Shown here: positions 6,805-53,716 of the stretch, piece after piece
How positions within the stretch are numbered: the stretch's first letter is position 1
Layout: every line of letters starts with the position of its first letter
Translations under genes and position numbers: made by a program
DNA from: Mobula hypostoma
Taxonomy: Eukaryota
DNA: 64,000 bases
NCBI RefSeq assembly: GCF_963921235.1
Contig: NC_086097.1
Location: 153,700,001 to 153,764,000, forward strand
Direction: 5' to 3'
The notes under the pieces: generated by a model
Seen by the model: the letters and a program-made list of their open reading frames with translations, nothing else
Database searches by the model: none
What the model was told of the DNA's origin: nothing

Positions 6805-7028
6805 CAACACACCAACACACACAAAATGCTGGAGGAACTCAGCAGGCCAGGCAGCATCTGCGGAAAAGTGTACAGTCAATGTTTTGGGCCGAGTGTACAG
6901 CAGGACTCCGCCCGAAGTGTGGACTGTTTACTCTTTTCCATAGATTTTGCCTGGCCTGCTGAGTTCCTCCAGCAGTTTGTGCGTGTTACTTGGATTTCCA
7001 GCATTTGCAGATTTTCTCTTGTTCGTGA
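6805..7028. mobile_element. Short palindromic non-autonomous element related to the Penelope terminal repeat
   Basis: Arms ACACACAAAATGCTGGAGGAACTCAGCAGGCCAGGCA / TGCCTGGCCTGCTGAGTTCCTCCAGCAG. Flanked by a 13-bp direct repeat AGGTAATTCCATT (6792-6804, 7029-7041). Confidence 0.85.
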
Positions 7029-8175: not shown

Positions 8176-9435
8176 AAACTTAAGGAAAACAGAGTTCAGT
8201 GCTTCCAGATAACCAGAAAGGCAGAGCCCTAATCTATCTTGTGAAGAAGAAATGCGGGGGAGAAAATGATAAAAAAACACTGCACTGTGATAAAAAGAAT
8301 GGCCATCTCTGCTGCAGCAAAGGAATTAAATTACTAAAAGAAGGCATTAAGCATTCACCTGCTATCTTGACAAAAAAGCATAATTTACAGGTCATAATGT
8401 CTGCAGCTCCCAGAAAATACCACAGTACATTAGTTCTGATGTTAATTTGCATTATGCATTGAAAATCAAAAAGAAAGTGTGAAGCTCTTTATTGCATTAT
8501 GCTTGTCTTACAAATGTGGCAGCATTAAAATATTGTAAAGCCATCTCAAAAATAGTGTAATTGCCAATGAATAGCTGTCCAGGAATGGACTAAATATGAA
8601 AATTATAGGCAGTAGAATGTAATAGAATAGAAACAGACCGTTTGTTTATTGTGTCAGTGAGAGATATTATTGAGCCTGCTTACATCAGTTTTCAGATGGT
8701 GCACTTCAGCTGTGTTTGGTGGTGATGGGGGGAGGGGGAAATTCTTCATCACACCCCCGGTACTTCAGCAATTATGTTAAATATCTGCCACGCCCCTGAC
8801 CATTAACCTTTTGCCATTGTTTCCAATTTCACTATCAAAGCCCTTTATGATTCTGAACATCTCAATTAAACCTCCCTTTAACCTTCTCAAAATGAATGAA
8901 ATCAACCACACCACCTAGACTCTCCATTACATCATCAGAAACAACATCACGACATCATTTTGCAAATTTAAGGAGAACAGCCTGATTCAAAGATATTGGT
9001 TGCATGTCACATTAGCTTACTGGCCAATTTATCCCTTCTATATTTTCCTTCATTATGAGCCATAATATGTGGAGGTGAATTTAATGTAGCCGAAAGCCTC
9101 ATATCATATCTCAAAAATATAACTTCTATTTAAGTAACATTTCAATATTAATATTTTAATTTGATATCTACAACTAGATGCTTTGCCCTTATACAGAATT
9201 CACATGTAACTGGCAGAAGTGTCCAAGAGCATTGATCTATTTCATAGAATTTTCTCAGAAAGTGCATATTTCACTTTTCAGATGTGTTTTCGTTCATGCA
9301 CTGTCTCCCATCAGCCTGCCCTGAGGCCTTCACATGCATACAACAGGAATTCTGCAGATACTGGAAATTCAAGCAACACACATCAAAGTTGCTGGTGAAT
9401 GCAGCAGGCCAGGCAGCATCTCTAGGAAGAGGTAC

Positions 9436-9471
9436 ATTCGATGTTTCAGGCCGAGACCCTTCGTCAGGACT
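9436..9471 (-). ncRNA. Mutated minimal hammerhead ribozyme motif
   Basis: Minus strand reads AGTC-CTGACGA-AGGGTCTCGGCCT-GAAAC-ATC-GAAT. Core boxes are intact, but the ACGT palindrome and stem I each carry a substitution. Confidence 0.6.
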
Positions 9472-10108
9472 AACTGAAGGAAGAGTTAGTAAGAGATTTG
9501 AAAGTGGGAGGGGGAGAGGGAGATCCAAAATGATAGGAGAAGACAGGAGGGGGAGGGATGGAGCCAAGAGCTGGACAGGTGATTGGCAAAGGGGATATGA
9601 GAGGATCATGGGACAGGGGGTCCGGGGAGAAAGACAAGGGGGGGGGCGGTGAACCAGAGGATGGACAAGAGGTATTGTCAGAGGGACAGAGGGAGAAAAA
9701 GGAGAGTGAGAGAAAGAATGTGTGTATAAAAATAAATAACGGATGGGGTACGAGGGGGAGGTGGGGCATTAGCGGAAGTTAGAGAAGTCAATGTTCATGC
9801 CATCACTTCCGCTAATGCCCTACCTCCCCCTCGTACCCCTTCCGTTATTTATATACACACATTCTTTCTCTCACTCTCCTTTTTCTCCCTCTGTCCCTCT
9901 GACTATACCCCTTGTCCATCCTCTGGGTTCCCCCCCTCCCCCTTTTCCTTCTCCCTGGGCCTCCTGTCCCATGATCCTCTCATATCCCTTTTGCCTATCA
10001 CCTGTCCAGCTCTTGGCTCCATCCCTCCCCCTCCTGTCTTCTCCTATCATTTTGGATCTCCCCCTCCCCCTCCCACTTTCAAATCTCTTACTAACTCTTC
10101 CTACAGTT

Positions 10109-10144
10109 AGTCCTGACGAAGGGTCTCAGCCTGAAACGTCGACT
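10109..10144 (+). ncRNA. Minimal type I hammerhead ribozyme motif
   Basis: AGTC-CTGACGA-AGG(GTCTCAG)CCT-GAAAC-GTC-GACT: CUGANGA and GAAA boxes, stem II AGG/CCT, stem I AGTC/GACT, GUC cleavage triplet. Confidence 0.8.
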
Positions 10145-11499
10145 GTACCTCTTCCTAGAGATGCTGCCTGGCCTGCTACATTCACCAGCAACTTTGCTGT
10201 GTGTTGCCTTCACATGCATGTTTAATTGGTTCCAATTGTGATTCATAAACTTTCTTTTATTTCTCCCATCTCGCCATTACATTGGATAAGACTACTTACA
10301 GCGAAGGTACAAACTGAAAATGTGTTGTTTTAAAATTGAAACATGTAAAACGCTGGAAAAAGATGAAAATCTTGATGTTCTTATGAGGGATTTCACAATC
10401 TTAACAATTTATGTCATTAATGTGTGAAGCTTAAAGGATTCTTTGTCAGCTCGGAGTGATAAATGAATTTGAGTCACATATTTAAACGTTCACACATAGA
10501 ATGCAATGTGGAGTTACTTTTTGAGCAATCTTCAAGTAATCAGTTTAATCATGCAACCAGCATCCTCACCCCAATCTTCCATCAGAATTTCAGTTTCCTA
10601 TGGACGCCAGATTGTTGAGTGTATACTATAAAAGTCCTATGACGGGGACCCCAACACTAAGGAGCTACCACTGCCAACAATGGATGTGATGATGAGACCT
10701 CCAAGCAGCTGGCATTGTTTTAGCAGATCAGCCGTACAGTTTCCAGATCTAATTTTTCTGCCTGCATTTTCTCCTAATGATGTCCCTCTGGTGACATATG
10801 CATACTTTGATAATAAATTTAATTTGAACTTTGAGTCTCTGTCAAGACTTCACTCCCTTTTTTTCTGGGAACTTGACCTCCATTTAGCCTTTATAGTTCA
10901 GGTATCAGGAACGACTTCATCAGAGATTTCCCTGTGGTTGCAATTAATAAGTGAAGGGAGAAGGAAGCAGACAGGGGATTGACAAATCCTAACCAATTGC
11001 TGGCTGTTCATTTCTGACTTGTACTTTATCCGCACCCTGGTGTCCCAATACCATCAGCAGGAAATGTTAACTTAATGGAGCAAGAAAATACAGCAGATGG
11101 AAGAACGAAGTGCGCTCATTGTGGGATTAACTGACACATGGTAAATCTCCAAGCACTATACAGAATTTTTCACCGAAGGCTGCTTTAAATTAAAATGAAG
11201 AAAATTAATAACAATATTGACACAGTGTACATTAGCTTCTAAGTAGACTTGCAGGGGGGAGAGGAGAAAGCTGCTATTTATACTTATATCACAAAAATAA
11301 TTTTTAATGACTTACTTATTAAACCAAGGAGAAATATATGCATTTTGCAAACAAGCATATAGGAAAGCAGGAATGGAATTACAAGATGCTGCAAATTTGG
11401 GCTCTGGATAATACACTTAAAACAATTTCAGCTTAAGCTTCCCTATTCTGATGCATCAAACTGTTTTCTCTAATGGTTATAACGCTGGTAAGGATTGAA

Positions 11500-13129: not shown

Positions 13130-15875
13130 GAAACATAGAAACATAGAAACATAGAAACATAGAAAATAGGTGCAGGAGTAGGCCATTCGGCCCTTCGAGC
13201 CTGCACCGCCATTTATTATGATCATGGCTGATCATCCAACTCAGAACCCAGCCTTCCCTCCATACCCCCTGACCCCTGTAGCCACAAGGGCCATATCTAA
13301 CTTCCTTTTAAACATAGCTAATGAACTGGCCTCAACAGTTTGCTGTGGCAGAGAATTCCACAGATTCACCACTCTCTGTGTGAAGAAGTTTTTCCTAACC
13401 TCGGTCCTAAAAGGCTTCCCCTCTATCCTCAAACTGTGACCCCTCGTTCTAGACCTCCCCAACATCGGGAACAATCTTCCTGCATCTAGCCTGTCCAATC
13501 CCTTTAGGATCTTATACGTTTCAATCAGATCCCCCCTCAATCTTCTAAATTCCAACGAGTACAAGCCCAGTTCATCCAGTCTTTCTTCATATGAAAGACC
13601 TGCCATCCCAGGAATCAATCTGGTGAACCTTCTTTGTACTCCCTCTATGGCAAAGATGTCTTTCCTCAGATTAGGGGACCAAAACTGCACACAATACTCC
13701 AGGTGTGGTCTCACCAAGGCCTTGTACAACTGCAGTAGTACCTCCCTGCTCCTGTACTCGAATCCTCTCGCTATAAATGCCAGCATACCGTTCGCCTTTT
13801 TCACCGCCTGCTGTACCTGCATGCCCACTTTCAATGACTGGTGTATAATGACACCCAGGTCTCGTTGCACCTCCCCTTTTCCTAATCGGCCACCATTCAG
13901 ATAATAATCTGTTTTCCTATTTTTGCCACCAAAGTGGATAACTTCACATTTATCCACATTAAATTGCATCTGCCATGAGTTTGCCCACTCACCCAACCTA
14001 TCCAAGTCACCCTGCATCCTCTTAGCATCCTCCTCACTGCTAACACTGCCACCCAGCTTCGTGTCATCCGCAAACTTGGAGATGCTGCATTTAATTCCCT
14101 CATCCAAGTCATTAATATATATTGTAAACAACTGGGGTCCCAGCACTGAGCCTTGCGGTACCCCACTAGTCACCGCCTGCCATTCTGAAAAGGTCCCGTT
14201 TATTCCCACTCTTTGCTTCCTGTCTGCTAACCAATTCTCCACCCACACCAATACCTTACCCCCAATACCGTGTGCTTTAAGTTTGCACACTAATCTCCTA
14301 TGTGGGACCTTGTCAAAAGCCTTTTGAAAATCCAAATATACCACATCCACTGGTTCTCCCCTATCCACTCTACTAGTTACATCCTCAAAAAATTCTATGA
14401 GATTCGTCAGACATGATTTTCCTTTCACAAATCCATGCTGACTTTGTCCGATCATTTCACCGCTTTCCAAATGTGCTGTTATCACATCCTTGATAACTGA
14501 CTCCAGCAGTTTCCCCACCACCGACGTTAGGCTAACCGGCCTATAATTCCCCGGTTTCTCTCTCCCTCCTTTTTTAAAAAGTGGGGTTACATTAGCCACC
14601 CTCCAATCCTCAGGAACTAGTCCAGAATCTAACGAGTTTTGAAAAATTATCACTAATGCATCCACTATTTCTTGGGCCACTTCCTTAAGCACTCTGGGAT
14701 GCAGACCATCTGGCCCTGGGGATTTATCTGCCTTCAATCCCTTCAATTTACCTAACACCACTTCCCTACTAACATGTATTTCGCTCAGTTCCTCCATCTC
14801 ACTGGACCCTCTGTCCCTTACTATTTCTGGAAGATTATTTATGTCCTCCTTAGTGAAGACAGAACCAAAGTAATTATTCAATTGGTCTGCCATGTCCTTG
14901 CTCCCCATAATCAATTCACCTGTTTCTGTTTGCAGGGGACCTACATTTGTCTTTATCAGTCTTTTCCTTTTTACATATCTATAAAAGCTTTTACAGTCCG
15001 TTTTTATGTTCTCTGCCAGTTTTCTCTCATAATCTTTTTTCCCCTTCCTAATTAAGCCCTTTGTCCTCCTCTGCTGAACTCTGAATTTCTCCCAGTCCTC
15101 AGGTGAGCCACTTTCTCTGGCTAATTTGTATGCTACTTCTTTGGAATTGATGCTATCCCTAATTTCTCTTGTCAGCCACGGGTGCACTACCTTCCTTGAT
15201 TTATTCTTTTGCCAAACTGGGATGAACAATTGTTGTAGTTCATCCATGCAACCTTTAAATGCCTGCCATTGCATATCCACCGTCAATCCTTGAAGTGTCA
15301 TTTGCCAGTCTATCTTAGCTAATTCATGTCTCATACCTTCAAAGTTACCCCTCTTTAAGTTCAGAACCTTTGTTTCTGAATTAACTACGTCACTCTCCAT
15401 GTTAATGAAGAATTCCACCATATTATGGTCACTCTTACCCAAGGGGCCTCTCACGACAAGATCGCTAATTAACCCTTCCTCATTGCTCAAAACCCAGTCC
15501 AGAATAGCCTGCTCTCTAGTCGGTTCCTCGACATGTTGGTTCAAAAAACCATCCCGCATACATTCCAAGAAATCCTCTTCCTCAGCACCTTTACCAATTT
15601 GGTTCACCCAGTCTACATGTAGATTGAAGTCACCCATTATAACTGCTGTTCCTTTATTGCACACATTTCTAATTTCCTGTTTAATACCATCTCCGACCTC
15701 ACTACTACTGTTAGGTGGCCTGTACACAACTCCCACCAGCGTCTTCTGCCCCTTAGTGTTACGCAGCTCTACCCATATCGATTCCACATCTTCCCGGCTT
15801 ATGTCCTTCCTTTCTATTGCGTTAATCTCTTTTTTAACCAGCAACGCCACCCCACCTCCCCTTCCTTCGTGTCTA
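13130..15875 (-). mobile_element. Young 5'-truncated CR1 LINE
   Basis: (GAAACATA)n tail at ~13130-13165, a 3' UTR, and an uninterrupted ORF2. Confidence 0.97.
13241..15875 (-). CDS. CR1 ORF2: partial APE endonuclease plus complete reverse transcriptase
   Basis: GGGVALLV, GVVYRPP, MGDFN and SDH endonuclease motifs; [39 protein letters not shown] and FADD RT motifs. The first ~16 codons of the track ORF are flanking DNA. Confidence 0.93.
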
Positions 15876-16261
15876 TAAGGTGGTGAACAGTTAAATAGCT
15901 GAATGGGGCAAGTCAATTCCACAAATGAGTCATCCTCATCAATAGCAAAATCTAACCTCTGCTTGAAAAAGACAAGGCTGGAAAATTCACAATCACTCAG
16001 CCAGCGGTATCAAGCATATAATCTATCTCAATCCCCTCCAAAGTTTCCCACCTCCACAAAAAACAATCTACAAACAATATGAGCACTGGCAGAAGCAAAG
16101 ACAAAGGGATCAGACAACATTCCAGCTGCATTACTGAAGAATTGAATTCTGAAATAATTATGCCCTCAGCCAAATTTATCCAACAGTTATACTAGCATTT
16201 AAACTGCAAGGTGAAATGGAGATACCGTTTACAAAATAGCATTACACACCCCAGAATTTCC

Positions 16262-17362
16262 TATTCTGGTATCTGTCCCCCACTTTTCCTTCGCTACATC
16301 GACAACTGCATTGGCGCTGCTTCCTGCACACATGCAGAACTCGCTGACTTTATTAACTTTGCCTCCAACTTTCACCCTGCCCTCAAGTTTACCTGGTCCA
16401 TTTCCAACACCTCCCTCCCCTTTCTAGATCTTTCTGTCTCTGTCTCTGGAGACAGCTTATCCACTGATGTCTACGATAAGCCTACTGACTCTCACAGCTA
16501 TCTGGACTATTCCTCTTCTCACCCTGTCTCTTGCAAAAACGCCATCCCCTTCTTGCAATTCCTCCGTCTCCGCCGCATCTGCTCTCAGCATGAGGCTTTT
16601 CATTCTAGGACGAGGGAGATGTCTTCCTTTTTTAAAGAAAGGGGCTTCCCTTCCTCCACTATCAACTCTGCTCTTAAACACATCTCCCCCATTTCACGTA
16701 CATCTGCTCTCACTCCATCCTCCCGCCACCCCACTAGGAATAGGGTTCCCCTGGTCCTTACCTACCACCCCACCAGCCTCCGGGTCCAACATATTATTCT
16801 CCATAACTTCCGCCACCTCCAACGGGATCCCACCACTCAGCACATCTTTCCCTCCCCCCCTCTCTCTGCATTCCGCAGGGATCGCTCCCTACACAACTCC
16901 CTTGTCCATTCGTCCCCCCCATCCCTCCCCATTGATCTCCCTCCTGGCACTTATCTGTGTAAGCGGAACAAGTGCTACACATGCCCTTACACTTCCTCCC
17001 TTACCACCATTCAGGGTCCCAAACAGTCCTTCCAGGTGAGGCGACACTTCACCTGTGAGTCGACTGGGGTGATATACTGCGTCCGGTGCTCCCGATGTGG
17101 CCTTTTATATATTGGCGAGACCCAACGCAGACTGGGAGACCGCTTTGCTGAACATCTACGCTCTGTCCGCCAGAGAAAGCTGGATCTCCCAATGGCCACA
17201 CATTTTAATTCCACATCCCATTCCCATTCTGACATGTCTATCCACGGCCTCCTCTACTGTAAAGATGAAGCCACACTCAGGTTGGAGGAACAACACCTTA
17301 TATTCCATCTGAGTAGCCTCCAACCTGATGGCATGAACATCGACTTCTCTAACTTCCGCTAA
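16262..17362 (+). CDS. Penelope RT C-terminus/thumb plus GIY-YIG endonuclease (N-truncated)
   Basis: FLRYIDN (YxDD site altered), LPFLDL, KPTDSHSYL, a CxxxxCxxC linker, and GVIYCVRCSRCGLLYIGETQRRLGDRFAEH ... EQHLI ... GMN. Confidence 0.92.
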   Translation, partial: YSGICPPLFLRYIDNCIGAASCTHAELADFINFASNFHPALKFTWSISNTSLPFLDLSVSVSGDSLSTDVYDKPTDSHSYLDYSSSHPVSCKNAIPFLQFLRLRRICSQHEAFHSRTREMSSFFKERGFPSSTINSALKHISPISRTSALTPSSRHPTRNRVPLVLTYHPTSLRVQHIILHNFRHLQRDPTTQHIFPSPPLSAFRRDRSLHNSLVHSSPPSLPIDLPPGTYLCKRNKCYTCPYTSSLTTIQGPKQSFQVRRHFTCESTGVIYCVRCSRCGLLYIGETQRRLGDRFAEHLRSVRQRKLDLPMATHFNSTSHSHSDMSIHGLLYCKDEATLRLEEQHLIFHLSSLQPDGMNIDFSNFR

Positions 17363-17661
17363 GGCCCCACCTCCCCCTCGTACCCCATCTGTTACTTATT
17401 TTTATGCACACATTCTTTCTCTCACTCTCCTTTTTCTCCCTCTGTCCCTCTGAATATACCTCTTGCCCATCCTCTGGGTCCCCCCCCACCTCCTTGTCTT
17501 TCTTCCCGGACCTCCTGTCCCATGATCCTCTCATATCCCTTTTGCCAATCACCTGTCCAGCTCTTGGCTCCATCCCCCCCCCCCCCCTGTCTTCTCCTAT
17601 CATTTTGCATCTCCCCCTCCCCCTCCAACTTTCAAATCCCTTACTCACTCTTCCTTCAGTT

Positions 17662-17697
17662 AGTCCTGACGAAGGGTCTCGGCCTGAAACGTCGACT
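17662..17697 (+). ncRNA. Minimal type I hammerhead ribozyme motif in the Penelope terminal repeat
   Basis: AGTC-CTGACGA-AGG(GTCTCGG)CCT-GAAAC-GTC-GACT; predicted cleavage after 17693. Confidence 0.82.
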
Positions 17698-18037
17698 GCA
17701 CCTCTTGCTACAGATGCTGCCTGGCCTGCTGCGTTCACCAGCAACTTTGATGTCTGTTGTGTGACACACCCCAATATGGCTCAAAATTAAAAAGAAAGCT
17801 GCAGATACTGGAATCTGAAATAATAACAGAAAATCCTGGGAAAAGCATAGTAAACAGGCAGCATCTATAGAAAGATGAATTATAAAAAGAGTGTACCAGA
17901 GGGTGTCTTCTCCCAGATCATCGGCAAAACAGTTAAATTCTTCCTAATTCCAATGTCTCTATATTCCTTTTCAGGGTGGCTGGGGTCCTATCGGGATCTT
18001 TGATCTAATGCGGCACTCAAAACTGTGGTTCTGCACA

Positions 18038-18124
18038 GCACACACAAAATGCTGGAGGAACTCAGCAGGCCAGGCATCATCTATGGAAAAGAGTACAGTC
18101 GATGTTTTGGGCCGAGACCCTTCA
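18038..18124 (-). mobile_element. Half copy of the Penelope-derived short element
   Basis: CACACAAAATGCTGGAGGAACTCAGCAGGCC...CAGTCGATGTTTTGGGCCGAGACCCTTCA, ending inside the hammerhead-like segment. Confidence 0.8.
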
Positions 18125-18129
18125 GTAGT

Positions 18130-21100
18130 TGTCCCAGCAGATTGACCCACCGGTGTATGCTTACTTAAAGGAGGTCGTATGCCGACACAAGCACACAATC
18201 CAGAAGCAGCAGAAAACCATTGGCCACCTGTCCACCACTCTCGTCCGACAGTCCACCTTGGTGCCATAACTCCATGCCAGCCAACGTCTCCCTCTCAGAC
18301 TCAAATGCTTCGACAGATTTCCAGCTTGATGCCGCTACTTCTTCCCCCAGTGTGTCTTCTACTTCGAGCTCCAGCCATCTCTATATTCAGCAGACCAGGT
18401 CAAGGTTGCCTTCCTCATCTCTCTCTTCACTGGGTGAGCTCTGGCCTGGGCCACCAGTAACTGGGGCAATAAAGTCACCGCTGAGATGCGCTGGGTTTTT
18501 GACCATCCAGGAAGTGGAAGGGAGACAGTCGATCTGATAATTAGCCTGCACCAAGGTCCACACTCCGTGCTAGATCACGGGCCTTCGGGAACCTCAAGGT
18601 GGAGTGCAGATGGGATGCAGGAGCACCGCTGGCCCAATATGATCATGTCCTCTTAAAGATGAGCTGTCTACCCACCAACCTTGAAAGCCTCATCACTCTG
18701 GCTCTCTGTTTTAACAAGCTTCCTATGGAATTTCCCTTCAGGTCATCAGCCAGTTCGATTCTCAGAACCTCCTCACCTACACCTGCAGAACCCAGGCAGT
18801 TGTGGAGAGCTTCCTTACTTTAACCCACCCACCTCCCCACCCCCCCACCCCACCACCACCAGGAGCACGAGCATCAGTGGAGAAACAAATTGTGTGCCTA
18901 CTGCAGAGCATCAACTACGAACACATCAAATGCCCACTGAGTCCAGAAAATGGTGCTTCCAGGTCGAGACAAAGAGTCTCCTATCTGACAAGATCTGCCC
19001 TGCCCCTCATTGCAGCCCCACAGCCCATCTCACTCTCTTTATCTCCCTCCATACACTGACAGTTCTACAAGCACAGGGGGCTCTGGTGGATTCCGACACA
19101 ACAGACAATTTTCTGAATCGGAGTTTGTGTGCGCAGCTTGGACTCCCTACTGAACCTACCTCTCACACATTCAACATCACAGCCATTGACAGACGTCCCC
19201 TGGGTCTGGGACAATCAGAGTGTGCACTCAGCCTGTGCACTCGAGCATCCAAAAGCACTGCGAGTCCATCCAATTCTTCCTCACCCAACACTCCTCTCAT
19301 CCTGGATTACTGCTTGCTCTCCACTTACAACCCTCTCTTCACCTGGTCATCTGATGCACTGCTAAGTTGGGGAGGGACCCACCTGCCTGTAAAATCAATT
19401 GACTTTGCCCCATAAATCCATCATGACGGAGGAAACGCTCAACCTCATCAAACTCCCACAGGAATATCACAACTTAGCAATCACCTTCAATAAAAGGAAA
19501 GCCAGCACTCTGGTCACAGACCACACAACTGTGCCATCAACCTCGTCTTGGGCAGCACCCCTCCCCAAGGCCATTTGTCCTCCCTCTCTCCTCCTGAGAC
19601 CCAACCCATGAATGACTAAATCGCCAAAGTGCTACAGCATGACTTCATTCACTCAGCCCAGTCCCCAGCTGGTGCAAGGTTCTTCTTTTTCGAAAAGAAA
19701 GATTGGTGTCTTCATCCCTGCACTGACTACCGTGGAGTCAACAAAAGAACCATTAGGAACTATTACCCTCTCCTGTTGATGGATAGCACTTTCAAACACT
19801 CTATGGGCCAGGTCTTCACCAAACTGGATCTATAGATTGCGCACAATCTGATCTGCATCCACCAGGAGTTTGAGTGGAAGATGGCATTCATAATGCCCAC
19901 TAGCCACTACAGGTACTTGGTGATGCCTTTCGGACTTTCCACAGTCCAGCCATTTCCCAAGACTTCATTAATGAGATCCTGCAAGACATGCTACACAGTT
20001 AAGTTTCCTTCTACCTCGATGATATTGTCACCTCTCCAAAAACCCCCACAACAACATTTATCTTATTCATTCATTTCTCTGGTGTCTCCTTGAAAAACAA
20101 ATCTATGGCAAGTTAGAGAAATGCAAGATCCAGCCTCCCAGTCATTTCCTTCCTAGGTTACATTCTTTCACTGGAAGGCATAATCATTGACCCAGAGAAA
20201 GTGCACGCCATCATTGAATGGCCCTGACTGTGCACTCTCAAACAGCTACAGCGCTTTATGGGCTTCTCCAACTTCGACTCCTGTTTCGTCAGAAGTTACA
20301 GCCAAATCGCCACTCCTCTCACCTCTCTCACCAAGTCACCTACCACACAGATAACCAGGTTTGCTGCCCTGGACCATGTTTTCGAGGATCTCAAGAGACG
20401 CTTTACCACTACTCCCATACTCCACCATCTGAATCCCTCCAGACATTTGTGATAGAGCTGGATGCATCTGACGTGGGTGCTGGGGCCATTCTCTCCCAGT
20501 GAGAAAGGGTCTGGAGGACACACCTATGTGCCTTCTTCTCACACATTCAACCTTACAAAGTGCCATTATGGAGTAAGAGACAGAGAGCTACTCAGTATTA
20601 AATGGTTTTAGAGAAATAAAGGCATTGGCTGACGGGAAACACCAAGCCCATCTTGAACTGAACCTGAATCTGATATCCAAACAATACACCTGGCTTCTCA
20701 ATTCACACCAGAATCACTCGTTCCTCTTCTTCAAGCGATTCAATTTCACCACCTCCTAGTGACTCAGCTCCAGGTACCCTAAGGTGGACACCCTGTCCTG
20801 ACAGTTCAACCCAGATGAAATGAGATCGACCCTCAGCCGATCATTCCACCCTCACTGATCCTTGTCCCAATTGTCTGGGAGGGACCTTTAGAATGAGATC
20901 CGTCAGGCCTTACAGCACAAGCTTGCTCTAGCCACCGTGTATACGTGCACTGAGGCAATCCTGTGGGCCCAATCTTCGCCCCTCTCCGGCCATCCGGGTG
21001 CACGACTGACTCTGGACTTTCTGCGACACTGGTTCTGGTCGCAGATGTACGTTATTTCATCCCTTCCTGCCATCAATGTGCCCAGTCCAATCCCTCCGAT

Positions 21101-24964: not shown

Positions 24965-25087
24965 ACAAACAAGAGAAAATCTGCAGATGCTGGAAATCCA
25001 AGCCACACACACAAAATGCTGGAGGAACTCAGCAGGCCAGGCAGCATCTAGGAAAAGAGTACAGTCAATGTTTCAGCCTGAAACGTG
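24965..25087 (-). mobile_element. Penelope-derived short element (one arm)
   Basis: AAGAGAAAATCTGCAGATGCTGGAAATCCAAG...GCTGGAGGAACTCAGCAGGCCAGGCAGCATC. Confidence 0.85.
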
Positions 25088-27725: not shown

Positions 27726-29112
27726 ATAAATCCCACCTACTGACCAAGCATTCCACATCACTATTTGAAAGTAAATACATTCTACTGAAAAATCATAATC
27801 TTCTCTTTCCATTGACAGTTTGGAAAATTGTAAGTTCAATATTCAAAAATAATGTATTAATGAAGTACATAGATGTTATCATGTGGGCATTCACATATAA
27901 TACAAAAAAGCAGAATAGAATCAATGAAGTTTTCCCCCATTTCTCACATCAGATTCAGCTTCCATTCTTATCATACATTCCACGTCCAATTTTATAATGT
28001 TTGCATAAAATGTTTCAGTTCTTTATTTTCTAAAAGTAGACATTGACATCAGTATGAAATAGGCAATCTAATAGACCAGTGTTACTAAAATGCATGTTCA
28101 TTTCTCCCTTCAGTTCATTTCAAATGCTGCTGAAAATGCAGTGGCATATTTCAAGGTTCAAAGTAAATTTATCTTCGAAGTACATATGTGTCACCATATG
28201 CAACCCTGAGAGTAATTTTCTTGCGGGCATTCATAACAAATAAAAGAAACACAATTGAATCAATGGAAGACTGCTCCCAACAGAACATCCAGATATATGC
28301 ATCTTTGCTGTCCTGATGTTCCAGGATTCAGGGGAGACCCAATTAAATGGCATCTGCTGTTGACATGTTGTGAAGGTAGCAAATTGGAGTGGAATCAAGT
28401 CACTTCTCAGGCAGGAGTTGGTTTTGTTGTTGCATGAATGAAGTTACTGGAGAAAATTACTGGTAGATACAAAGCAGCTTTTTTATTCGACAAAATTATG
28501 TGCAGTGGCATCATGTGGAGATGCTTTCAGTGGAAAGGTCTCGCTGGCCCAACATGGGGCTCGATATTTTATGTGCCAAACATCAAAGGACAACACAGTA
28601 TTTACAATGAATGGACAATGCTTTCTTTGAAATTACATATAACCTTCACACCTCTCGATTTGCATCCACACCACAGACATCCAAATGAATTTTAATCAGC
28701 ACTGTCTGGTCTGGGATTCACTCCTCTTAGGAACCCATTGGTCAGAGTTGCACTCCAAATTAAATCCATAATGCATACTCAGATGTGAAGAGTGGTAGCC
28801 AAAGTCAATTGCTAAATGTGTATGTCCTAAACCTAAAAATTGCTCTAACAGCTATGTTTTATCACAAACATCTCAAAGTACTTCACTACTGTGGACACAA
28901 GTGCTACTGGATGATAGTCATTGAGGCAGATTTCCACATTCTTAGGCAGTGGGATAATTGCAGCCTGCTTGAAGCAGGTGGGTACCTCAGACTACCGAAG
29001 TGAGTGGTTAAAGATACTGCTGAGCACCCCAGCCAGTTAATCGACTGGGAAGCAACTTGGATCCACTCCAATTTGCCCACCAGAGCAACAGGGGCCTTGT
29101 CATTGGCCCTTC

Positions 29113-29226
29113 TTGGCCCAAACGTCGACTGTACTTTCTTCCATAGCTGATGCCTGGCCTGCAGAGTTCCTGCAGCACTTTGTGTGTATTGTTTGGATTT
29201 CCAGCAGCTGCAGATTTTCTCTTGTT
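29113..29226 (+). mobile_element. Penelope-derived short element (one arm)
   Basis: GGCCCAAACGTCGACTGTAC...GATGCCTGGCCTGCAGAGTTCC...TGGATTTCCAGCAGCTGCAGATTTTCTCTTG. Confidence 0.85.
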
Positions 29227-51700: not shown

Positions 51701-53529
51701 ATGCTGCTCCCAGGTACCCAGGAACATAGTAATAATTTGCAAAAAAAAAAATATGCTTTGCTGTCTGAGATCATTTACTTATTTGAGAATGGAATTGAAT
51801 GAAGAGAGTCATAAAGGGATCAGTATGAATTTCTCAGTATTGTTTTGTAAAATACTTAAGCAAACAGCAATCATGCCACTGAATTTCATGACATTTAGTT
51901 CATGATCCGTGAAACACAAATTTTATTTTGCAACTTTTTCATTATGTACTGTATTAAAAAAAAGTCCATAAGGCACATACTTTTGGCATGCATTTTAAAG
52001 AACCTAAGTAGATTTCTCAATAATCTCAACAGTTAGGATTTCAGCATCCAGTTTAACAATTAGGTAGCAATCTACAATCTTCTTGCTATAGACCTACATG
52101 TCATCATGAGTCTATACTGGTTTGTTCAATTTTGTGCAGTGTCATTAATGGTGAAGCAGCTTACAACACCGCCCAGAGGGACTCCTGCACTGGGATGCTT
52201 TAACTTCAACAACTATAAGGTATTTCTCCAACTACTGGGGGTTTTTTCTTCTCTTTGATACCTATTGTCCCATTCAATCAAGGATATTCATTCTTACCTC
52301 ACCTCTGGAAATCTGGTCTTTGATCTACAGAATATTTGGACCAAAGCTTTTATAAGAAATGGACCCAAGTGGTTCTGGTGAAACACAAGGTGTCCATCAA
52401 TGGACAGGCTGTTGGTAAGAAAGTGAAATTTAATATCGTATGAACAGCACTTCACTATTTTCTTTATTTTGCAATCAGGATATACTGAGGCAATTTTCTA
52501 GTGGTGGCTAGATAATATTTTTTTATTTTAAAAAAAAGCTCTTCCATGGTTTTGCATAAATTTGCTAAATTTTTACCCATCCTTCTGGCTCACAGAATGG
52601 AAGCTATATACCTGGCTTGTGGAATTAAGATTTTGATCTCCATTGAAAAAAGAAGGGGGCTCTTTTGGGGTACATTATCCTTCAAATGTTTAGAAGCGAC
52701 TCTTCTCTTTCAGACCCAGGCACTCACATTTTTATGCTTCTGACTTTGACCAGTTTTACAGGTCAGGAGCATCAACATTTTTCTGACCCTTTAAAACCTC
52801 CCCCACCTGTTCTGTAGTATCAGCATTGCCCCCACCCACCCCCGCCTCCAAAAAGTGGCAAAAGTTTCCTTCTGCTGGAATACCTTAGTTCAAAAACTAC
52901 TTTTTGAAATAAGGTAATATTTCAATAAGTGGAATTGAAATGAAAATGGAAAATGCTGGAAATATGCAACTCAAGCAGAACAAAAGAGAAGGAAACAGAA
53001 TATTTTACATGAATGATCTTTCATCAGATCTGATAGAACAGATAGAAATTTTCTATTCAGGATATCTAACCTCAGACAATATAATCTAAACATTAGAGAC
53101 TGGGTTATTAGAGTTTTCATCAGGTGAAGCCCCTCATCAAAGCTCTTTGTCAAATCTTCAGAAAAAGTTAATAAGATTTTGAGAGTCAATGTCAGTTTAG
53201 AATAGCAGTGAATATCAGAGGTTAGGTCAAATAGAAAAGAAGAAAATCTGATGAATAGATCACTCATTTATCACAAAGACAGTCAGTTGGCCAACCTGCC
53301 TTATAGTTCATTGCATTGTAAATCCAGAACTTGGACTGATAAGAGGTAAACCCTCAAAATCTCTATTATGGTAATTTGGTTAGAAAAAAAATCAATTCAT
53401 TCTGTTTTTTGTACATCATAATATGACTTGATTTCAAGGCATGAATTGTGGATTTTGGAATGGAAGAATACTTAGCAGTCATCTATCAGAAACCTCAGAC
53501 AACAGCAAGATGAACTATACATATAGAGC

Positions 53530-53716
53530 AAACCAGAGAAAATCTGCAGATGCTGGAAATCCAAGCAACGCACACAAAATGCTGGAGGAACTCAGCAGGT
53601 CAGGCAGCATCTATGGAAAAACATCCTGCCGAAGGGTTTCAGCCCAAAAAGTCACCTGTACTTTTTTTCCATAGATGCTGCCAGGCCTGCTGAGTTCCTC
53701 CAGTATTTTGTGTTAC
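53530..53716. mobile_element. Palindromic Penelope-derived short element
   Basis: Two inverted arms around CCTGCCGAAGGGTTTCAGCCCAAAAAGTC, a decayed hammerhead core. Confidence 0.85.

Follow-up and report, generated by a model that had tools for sequence, protein, structure and literature searches.

A Mobula hypostoma Penelope-like element, truncated at its 5' end and likely an inert relic, with a minimal type I hammerhead motif in its 3' terminal repeat

Minimal hammerhead ribozymes (min-HHRs) in the pseudo-LTRs (PLTRs) of metazoan Penelope-like elements (PLEs) were described by Cervera and de la Peña (2014; PMC4209133). According to that account, single min-HHRs do not cleave and dimers of the PLE motif cleave weakly in vitro, so that the statement of an earlier note on the present DNA that motifs of this class are thought to need dimers agrees with the literature. 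Motifs that lie 2-3.5 kb apart in full elements (Table S1 of the same paper) were proposed as natural partners, the underlying search having been filtered for motif pairs within 50 kb. Another system to be considered is PAc, which is a Poseidon-clade PLE from Anolis carolinensis (Frangieh et al., 2024; PMC11167929). Its motif is reported to cut only with protein and to be dispensable for insertion in vitro, no RNA ends having been detected at its site in that study. The in vivo role of PLE hammerheads is still described as an open question in the field (PMC8557442; PMC11167929).

Here we analyze a window of 64,000 nucleotides (contig NC_086097.1 of the ray Mobula hypostoma) in which the earlier note, made from the letters alone, had pointed out such a motif. 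The single locus matters little, given that the class has been known since 2014 and that this copy looks dead. The family to which it belongs, however, is a ray family of very high abundance that is rich in natural variants, and so is good material for tests of dimer- or protein-assisted cleavage and of a link to splicing.

The motif and the element that carries it

The features of the element are the following.
16244..16253, no strand: left copy of a 10-bp direct repeat, likely a target-site duplication, 6 nt before the recognizable start of the element
16260..17362, plus strand: 5'-truncated remnant of a Penelope-like ORF (domain match, protein relatives, alignment, contig cover)
17363..17759, plus strand: 3' pseudo-LTR consisting of a pyrimidine-rich linker, the hammerhead motif and a conserved 3' end of about 60 nt (loose contig ends at 17759, copy comparison)
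17662..17697, plus strand: minimal type I hammerhead motif (letters, pattern count, stem descriptor, fold)
17764..17773, no strand: right copy of the 10-bp direct repeat, 4 nt past the end of the element

The motif opens with AGTC (17662-17665), which pairs with GACT (17694-17697) as stem I. The core CTGACGA (CUGACGA in RNA; 17666-17672, with C3 at 17666) is followed by the stem II region AGGGTCTCGGCCT (17673-17685), by GAAA (17686-17689) and by C-G-T-C (17690-17693). The palindrome ACGU (17689-17692) is all that there is of stem III, without a helix III or a loop 3, and the cut is predicted directly after C17, which is C17693. The letters that the earlier note quoted for core, stem I and palindrome are present, within its somewhat wider interval of 17656-17700, and its predicted starts of the 3' product, 17694 here and 10141 in a second copy, are right. 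Its stem II, in contrast, was read as AGG/CCU, which is likely the wrong register: in the isolated motif the pair probability is 0.95 for GGGU/GCCU (17674-77/17682-85, with a 4-nt loop) and 0.02 for AGG/CCU, and the alignment of relatives also speaks against the latter, which we reject. Because stem II starts after the inserted base A17673, with G17674 at position 10.1, the 10.1-11.1 pair at the base of this stem is G·U. Thus, although core and stems are complete, to call the hammerhead "perfect" was slightly generous.

Could such a motif be a chance match to the hammerhead consensus? The fold of the isolated motif is no more stable than those of shuffled sequences (z -0.18), and an Rfam search, of the kind that the earlier note had proposed, returned no hammerhead family among its 19 matches at E<=1 (cmscan, whole window). 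Against this, the pattern CTGANGAN{8,25}GAAACGT matches twice in the window where 0.03 matches are expected, with 0 of 100 shuffles reaching two, and chance is refuted by the fixed place of the motif behind the ORF in relatives and by the covariation of its stems (see below), so this explanation can practically be dismissed.

The ORF remnant, stop-free over 1.1 kb, is part of a stop-free frame of 388 aa (16196-17362) that ends 303 nt before the hammerhead core. It consists of the last reverse transcriptase (RT) motif, the thumb, a C-x4-C-xx-C linker that reads CKRNKCYTC, and a GIY-YIG endonuclease (EN), the match to which (E 2.4e-4, 21.8 bits) falls slightly below the 22.6 cut-off. Owing to the 5' truncation, the RT core is mostly absent; longer relatives carry PF00078. 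The last RT motif reads YIDN, as opposed to YIDD in most of the family, and in run X1 some 95% of the depth supports D at this point (row 16304). The remnant is 92% identical to a predicted protein of Mobula hypostoma; the next-best four protein matches, all from Hypanus, are 73-80% identical, and below these come shark proteins and relatives with 42-58% identity.

The 3' pseudo-LTR carries no tail extension. Contig cover begins near 16260 and peaks at the 3' end, with loose ends piling up at 17759, which is what would be expected of a family of 5'-truncated copies. Contigs lying on the element number 155,078 and 272,777 in two DNA runs and 19,268 and 12,626 in two putatively RNA runs, the type of the latter being guessed and their contigs carrying no strand, ends or level. 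A single contig, from a differently species-labelled run, extends from the left flank into the element, which hints weakly at an old insertion. In any case, the element at hand is a non-autonomous remnant. The 8 nt (16254-16261) separating the left direct repeat from the ORF remnant match the start of the family tail sequence, which may be microhomology or chance.

The motif among relatives of the family

The comparison of relatives involved 87 related loci, namely 80 of the 517 confirmed in metagenomes and 7 from genome assemblies. The 44 in which the ORF end is followed by at least 300 nt were considered evaluable. The core pattern is found on the ORF strand within 300 nt past the ORF in 18 of these 44 loci (the other 26 have no strict core). 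By comparison, the opposite strand shows it in 1 of 44 loci, and the 300 nt further on show it in 0 of 39. The full stem descriptor is passed by 16 of the 44 evaluable loci and by 19 loci in all, with the motif 92-130 nt past the ORF, and relatives that bear the motif just past the ORF have ORFs 41-49% identical to the remnant. In four loci (L017, L045, L047 and L056) core and stems are the same as in the published Acropora digitifera Neptune motif.

Covariation was assessed on the 19 descriptor-passing loci together with the two window copies, which make 20 distinct rows; two loci with the core only, L007 and L031, failed the descriptor and were excluded. Given that the descriptor demands stem pairing, the paired fraction, 84.4% of cells in the 20 distinct motifs against 64.5% after shuffling, is inflated, and the same selection applies to the finding of changes on both sides in 8 of the 9 pairs, with compensatory changes in stem I as well as in stem II. 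The covariation score is 0.61, as against 0.23 for shuffled and at most 0.12 for slid alignments. Both the base inserted between 9 and 10.1 and the ACGU palindrome are invariant in all 21 aligned rows, themselves descriptor-selected. The earlier note had named a lack of conservation or covariation of core and stems across family copies as grounds for giving up its reading; with the core at 18 of 44 loci and a score of 0.61, the opposite is the case. Taken together, the ORF, its domain, the relatives and the covariation uphold the assignment made there to the minimal type I hammerheads of Penelope-like pseudo-LTRs, and the motif is a real feature of the family.

Position 11.1 is the point at which the window copies depart from the rest of the family: it is U in the three long copies, which represent two independent insertions, and C in all 18 distinct relatives and in most of the older relics in the window. 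The U may be the mark of a subfamily or a product of CpG decay. One zebra shark protein (P0008) reads through the motif with Pro, which implies C at 11.1. The search of representative proteins added two Mobula proteins whose reading frame carries no information on this base, and none of the 20 candidates of the read-through protein search revealed it.

Several observations on the loci themselves deserve mention. Six of them (L023, L046, L082, L083, L085 and L086) have CCGACGA for CTGACGA, that is, U4 changed to C, with the rest intact about 90-100 nt past the ORF; this is possibly a core-variant subfamily, four of the six coming from a single assembly. Inverted hammerhead copies lie upstream of the ORF on the minus strand in L003, L017, L062 and L081, and a direct copy (L024:323, plus strand) lies about 3.1 kb upstream of the ORF end; these arrangements resemble full or inverted PLE units. 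The animal-type PLE ORFs of L081-L087 lie in contigs of two bacterial MAGs and most likely represent contamination with host DNA. Scans of metagenome and viral contigs with the DNA pattern gave 0 matches, and a PDB search gave one match at chance level (E 0.022).

Neighboring copies and the prospects of cleavage

The window contains further copies, as well as a splice-like signal next to the motif.
9326..9339, no strand: left copy of the 14-bp target-site duplication of an inverted unit (repeat comparison)
9340..9805, minus strand: inverted arm of the 9340-10206 unit, with a third hammerhead copy and a 34-nt tail at 9340-9373 (self-comparison, copy alignment)
10109..10144, plus strand: twin minimal hammerhead, C3 at 10113 and C17 at 10140 (letters, pattern, copy comparison, descriptor)
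10206..10219, no strand: right copy of the 14-bp duplication (repeat comparison)
17642..17659, plus strand: branch-point-like sequence with a pyrimidine tract and an acceptor-like CAG, immediately 5' of stem I (copy comparison, fold)
18034..18133, minus strand: antisense copy of the family 3' end, an older relic whose sequence is complementary to the region of the 17666 motif (self-comparison, fold)

The intact twin is present where the earlier note placed it, on the plus strand 7.5 kb away, and differs from the 17666 copy in one loop II base. It lies in the plus arm (9805-10206, without a tail) of a separate short insertion, 7,553 bp from the 17666 copy and in unrelated DNA. The earlier note did not include the third copy (9471-9436, minus strand, C3 at 9467), in which the palindrome and one pair of stem I are no longer intact. 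It is located in the inverted arm, and this arm lies 109 nt from the twin. The whole of 9340-10206 is a single unit between the copies of the 14-bp duplication. The unit of the twin is thus flanked by a duplication of its own; the twin and the 17666 copy are separate, independent and decayed insertions. The Rfam matches of miRNA type at 9701-9878, all under gathering scores, correspond to the junction hairpin of the inverted unit and are an artefact of the insertion. Further older relics are found near 6808-6893, 18034-18133, 25017-25084, 29111-29195, 45383 and 53621, and two more small inverted pairs of older family 3' ends occupy 53529-53697 and 6808-7023. Between the two plus-strand hammerhead copies lies a stop-free LINE ORF2 of 922 aa (13244-16009, minus strand; endonuclease and RT), which we take to be of CR1 type.

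The two arms of the inverted unit are identical at 381 of 401 positions and the two plus copies at 369 of 402. At a drift of 4-2.5% per copy, the computed probability that a 17-base core remains intact under neutrality is about 0.5-0.65, so that two intact cores out of three do not call for selection; they are the outcome expected from neutral decay.

How would the motif work in an active element? By analogy with other PLEs, two motifs in one RNA of tandem elements would swap strands, with their ACGU palindromes forming a shared stem III, and the resulting double hammerhead would slowly cleave the RNA behind C17, the element's own protein probably assisting. We infer the same dimer mechanism for the ray family, in which the likely role of the motif in active elements would be protein-assisted or dimeric processing of tandem transcripts.

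The earlier note went further and proposed that a single long plus-strand transcript brings the two copies together as a double hammerhead across 7.5 kb and cuts itself. Both copies are indeed on the plus strand with complete cores, a double-hammerhead pairing can be drawn (-12.8 kcal/mol for the two fragments), and the distance alone is no objection because pairs within 50 kb were allowed in the 2014 work, where the proposed natural partners are 2-3.5 kb apart in full elements (PMC4209133). However, the dimer is less stable than a pair of separate misfolded monomers, at -12.2 kcal/mol each, and than the co-fold minimum of -29.9 (tertiary contacts being unscored), and the duplexes with antisense arms reach -221.9 for the twin and -225.0 and -133.0 kcal/mol for the 17666 copy. 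In the predicted folds, the antisense arm would pair 34 of the 36 bases of the twin motif in any plus-strand RNA that starts upstream of about 9470, and the antisense relic would pair 27 of the 36 bases of the 17666 motif in any such RNA that runs past about 18130. Moreover, the insertions are independent, and two AATAAA and four ATTAAA signals lie between the copies on the plus strand; the required RNA would have to pass the two AATAAA and the antisense LINE at 13244-16009. Transcription from within 9845-10100 leaves the twin a stem II probability of about 0.29, and the proposal stays viable solely for an RNA with its start inside the repeat of the twin and its end before 18034, to which we attach very little credence. 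With separate decayed insertions and antisense arms that pair most of either motif, the meeting and cleavage of both copies in one transcript is unsupported, and in this general form, too, the proposal appears very improbable.

The 17666 copy also seems to be hampered on its own. In none of its four wider natural contexts does stem II exceed a probability of 0.003, since the core is taken up by pairing with the pyrimidine tract upstream of it, and the copy is accordingly predicted to be locally masked. Among the relatives with 60-nt flanks, stem II reaches a probability of at least 0.5 in 12 of 19 and remains below 0.5 in 7 of 19, which, along with the disregard of core tertiary contacts by the folding energies, makes masking a soft argument. 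Another possibility is that the 17666 copy is occasionally cleaved in trans, through a motif on another RNA of the family or through the protein of an active element. Partners may be plentiful, to judge from the 155,078 and 272,777 contigs of the DNA runs and the 19,268 and 12,626 of the putative RNA runs, and protein-assisted cutting is known for the anole PLE (PMC11167929). Nevertheless, such a dimer would be held only by a 4-bp stem III and stems I of 4-5 bp, the copy is predicted to be masked, even cis dimers are reported to cleave poorly (PMC4209133), and the RNA label of the two runs is a guess and their contigs are strandless. All this makes cleavage in trans very unlikely, and we infer that the 17666 copy is inactive.

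A further suggestion comes from the sequence immediately upstream of stem I. A branch-point-like TACTAAC/TACTCAC, a pyrimidine tract and CAG are present in all three long copies (17642-17659, 10089-10106 and the minus arm), the CAG ending at 17659, 2 nt before stem I, and the acceptor-like signal is predicted to pair with the core in a hairpin (17647-17677). This might indicate that in the ray subfamily the hammerhead is gated by splicing, such that removal of a pLTR intron unmasks the ribozyme only in spliced RNA; if true, this would provide a mechanism for the coincidence of intron and helix I reported for the Penelope of Drosophila virilis. In favor of the gate, an RNA starting at the acceptor raises the stem II probability from 0.52 to 0.95 in the twin and from 0.0 to 0.08 in the 17666 copy. 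Against it, the strand is pyrimidine-rich throughout and no more than about 12 nt separate the branch site from the AG; furthermore, a clear donor was not found, none of the 15 joints listed ends at 17660, and an AG in the 10 nt before the core occurs in 0 of the 19 relatives. On balance, the splicing gate is a long shot. Two predicted proteins, P0121 (an STARD3NL isoform of M. hypostoma) and P0122 (uncharacterized, M. birostris), read through the hammerhead region in sense; the match of P0122 has as its first codon the one spanning the acceptor-like CAG, as would fit either splicing at CAG or a truncated insertion, and P0121 matches two residues further upstream.

Overall, the 17666 copy is very probably a PLE truncated at its 5' end, likely of the Neptune clade and likely an inert relic, whose 3' terminal repeat holds a minimal hammerhead.

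Comparison with the known classes

The element has RT followed by a C-terminal GIY-YIG domain in one ORF, as is the rule in EN+ PLEs. The clades Neptune and Nematis are recognized by a CX2-5CxxC linker that joins RT to EN (PMC8557442), and CKRNKCYTC conforms to it. Since the linker is common to both clades, it does not by itself tell them apart; nevertheless, loci with ORFs 41-44% identical to the remnant carry the published A. digitifera Neptune motif, which points indirectly to Neptune, and membership in this clade is likely.

Among non-LTR retrozymes (Li et al., 2026; 10.64898/2026.07.22.740005), type I hammerheads are likewise linked to PLE pLTRs, but the units, as described there, are head-to-tail tandems of a few hundred bases. 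Taking such a retrozyme to require at least two head-to-tail units, each with a hammerhead, we reject this assignment for the window, given that its copies either stand 7,553 bp from each other or are inverted, one of them being joined to an ORF remnant. PAc is closer: it, too, is a PLE whose pLTR contains a minimal hammerhead, and a tail of 30-40 bp is optional in it (PMC11167929). It differs in belonging to Poseidon, a clade without the Cys linker (PMC8557442), in that its ORF begins at stem II and in being an active element, as opposed to the truncated YIDN copy considered here (PMC11167929). The 9340-10206 unit, for its part, agrees with published PLE hallmarks, namely a pLTR, an inverted truncated copy and a one-ended tail of 30-40 bp (PMC8557442).

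The closest match is with the min-HHRs of PMC4209133. Shared with these are type I topology, the CUGANGAH consensus, stem II, GAAA, the palindrome and UH; the absence of helix III and loop 3, the short helix I and the base inserted between 9 and 10.1; and the placement within a truncated PLE, in its 3' repeat; that paper, too, describes second copies that are inverted and close by. The nearest row in the supplement of that paper is Acropora digitifera Neptune. The difference is G10.1·U11.1, where the published motifs usually have G-C; by our own count 8 of the 56 rows in Fig. S3 have G·U, and because of these rows it is an accepted variant and no reason to exclude the motif. In every sequence feature other than this pair, then, the motif belongs to the PLE min-HHR class. 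The linker between ORF and motif is about 300 nt in the 17666 element, whereas it is 92-130 nt in the related loci. Cartilaginous fish are absent from the 56 rows of Fig. S3 in PMC4209133, and literature searches on PLE ribozymes in sharks or elasmobranchs and on the ray family, with most subscription papers outside their scope, returned nothing relevant. What is new here is a case from a ray family of a class that was described in 2014, the features of which are otherwise known.
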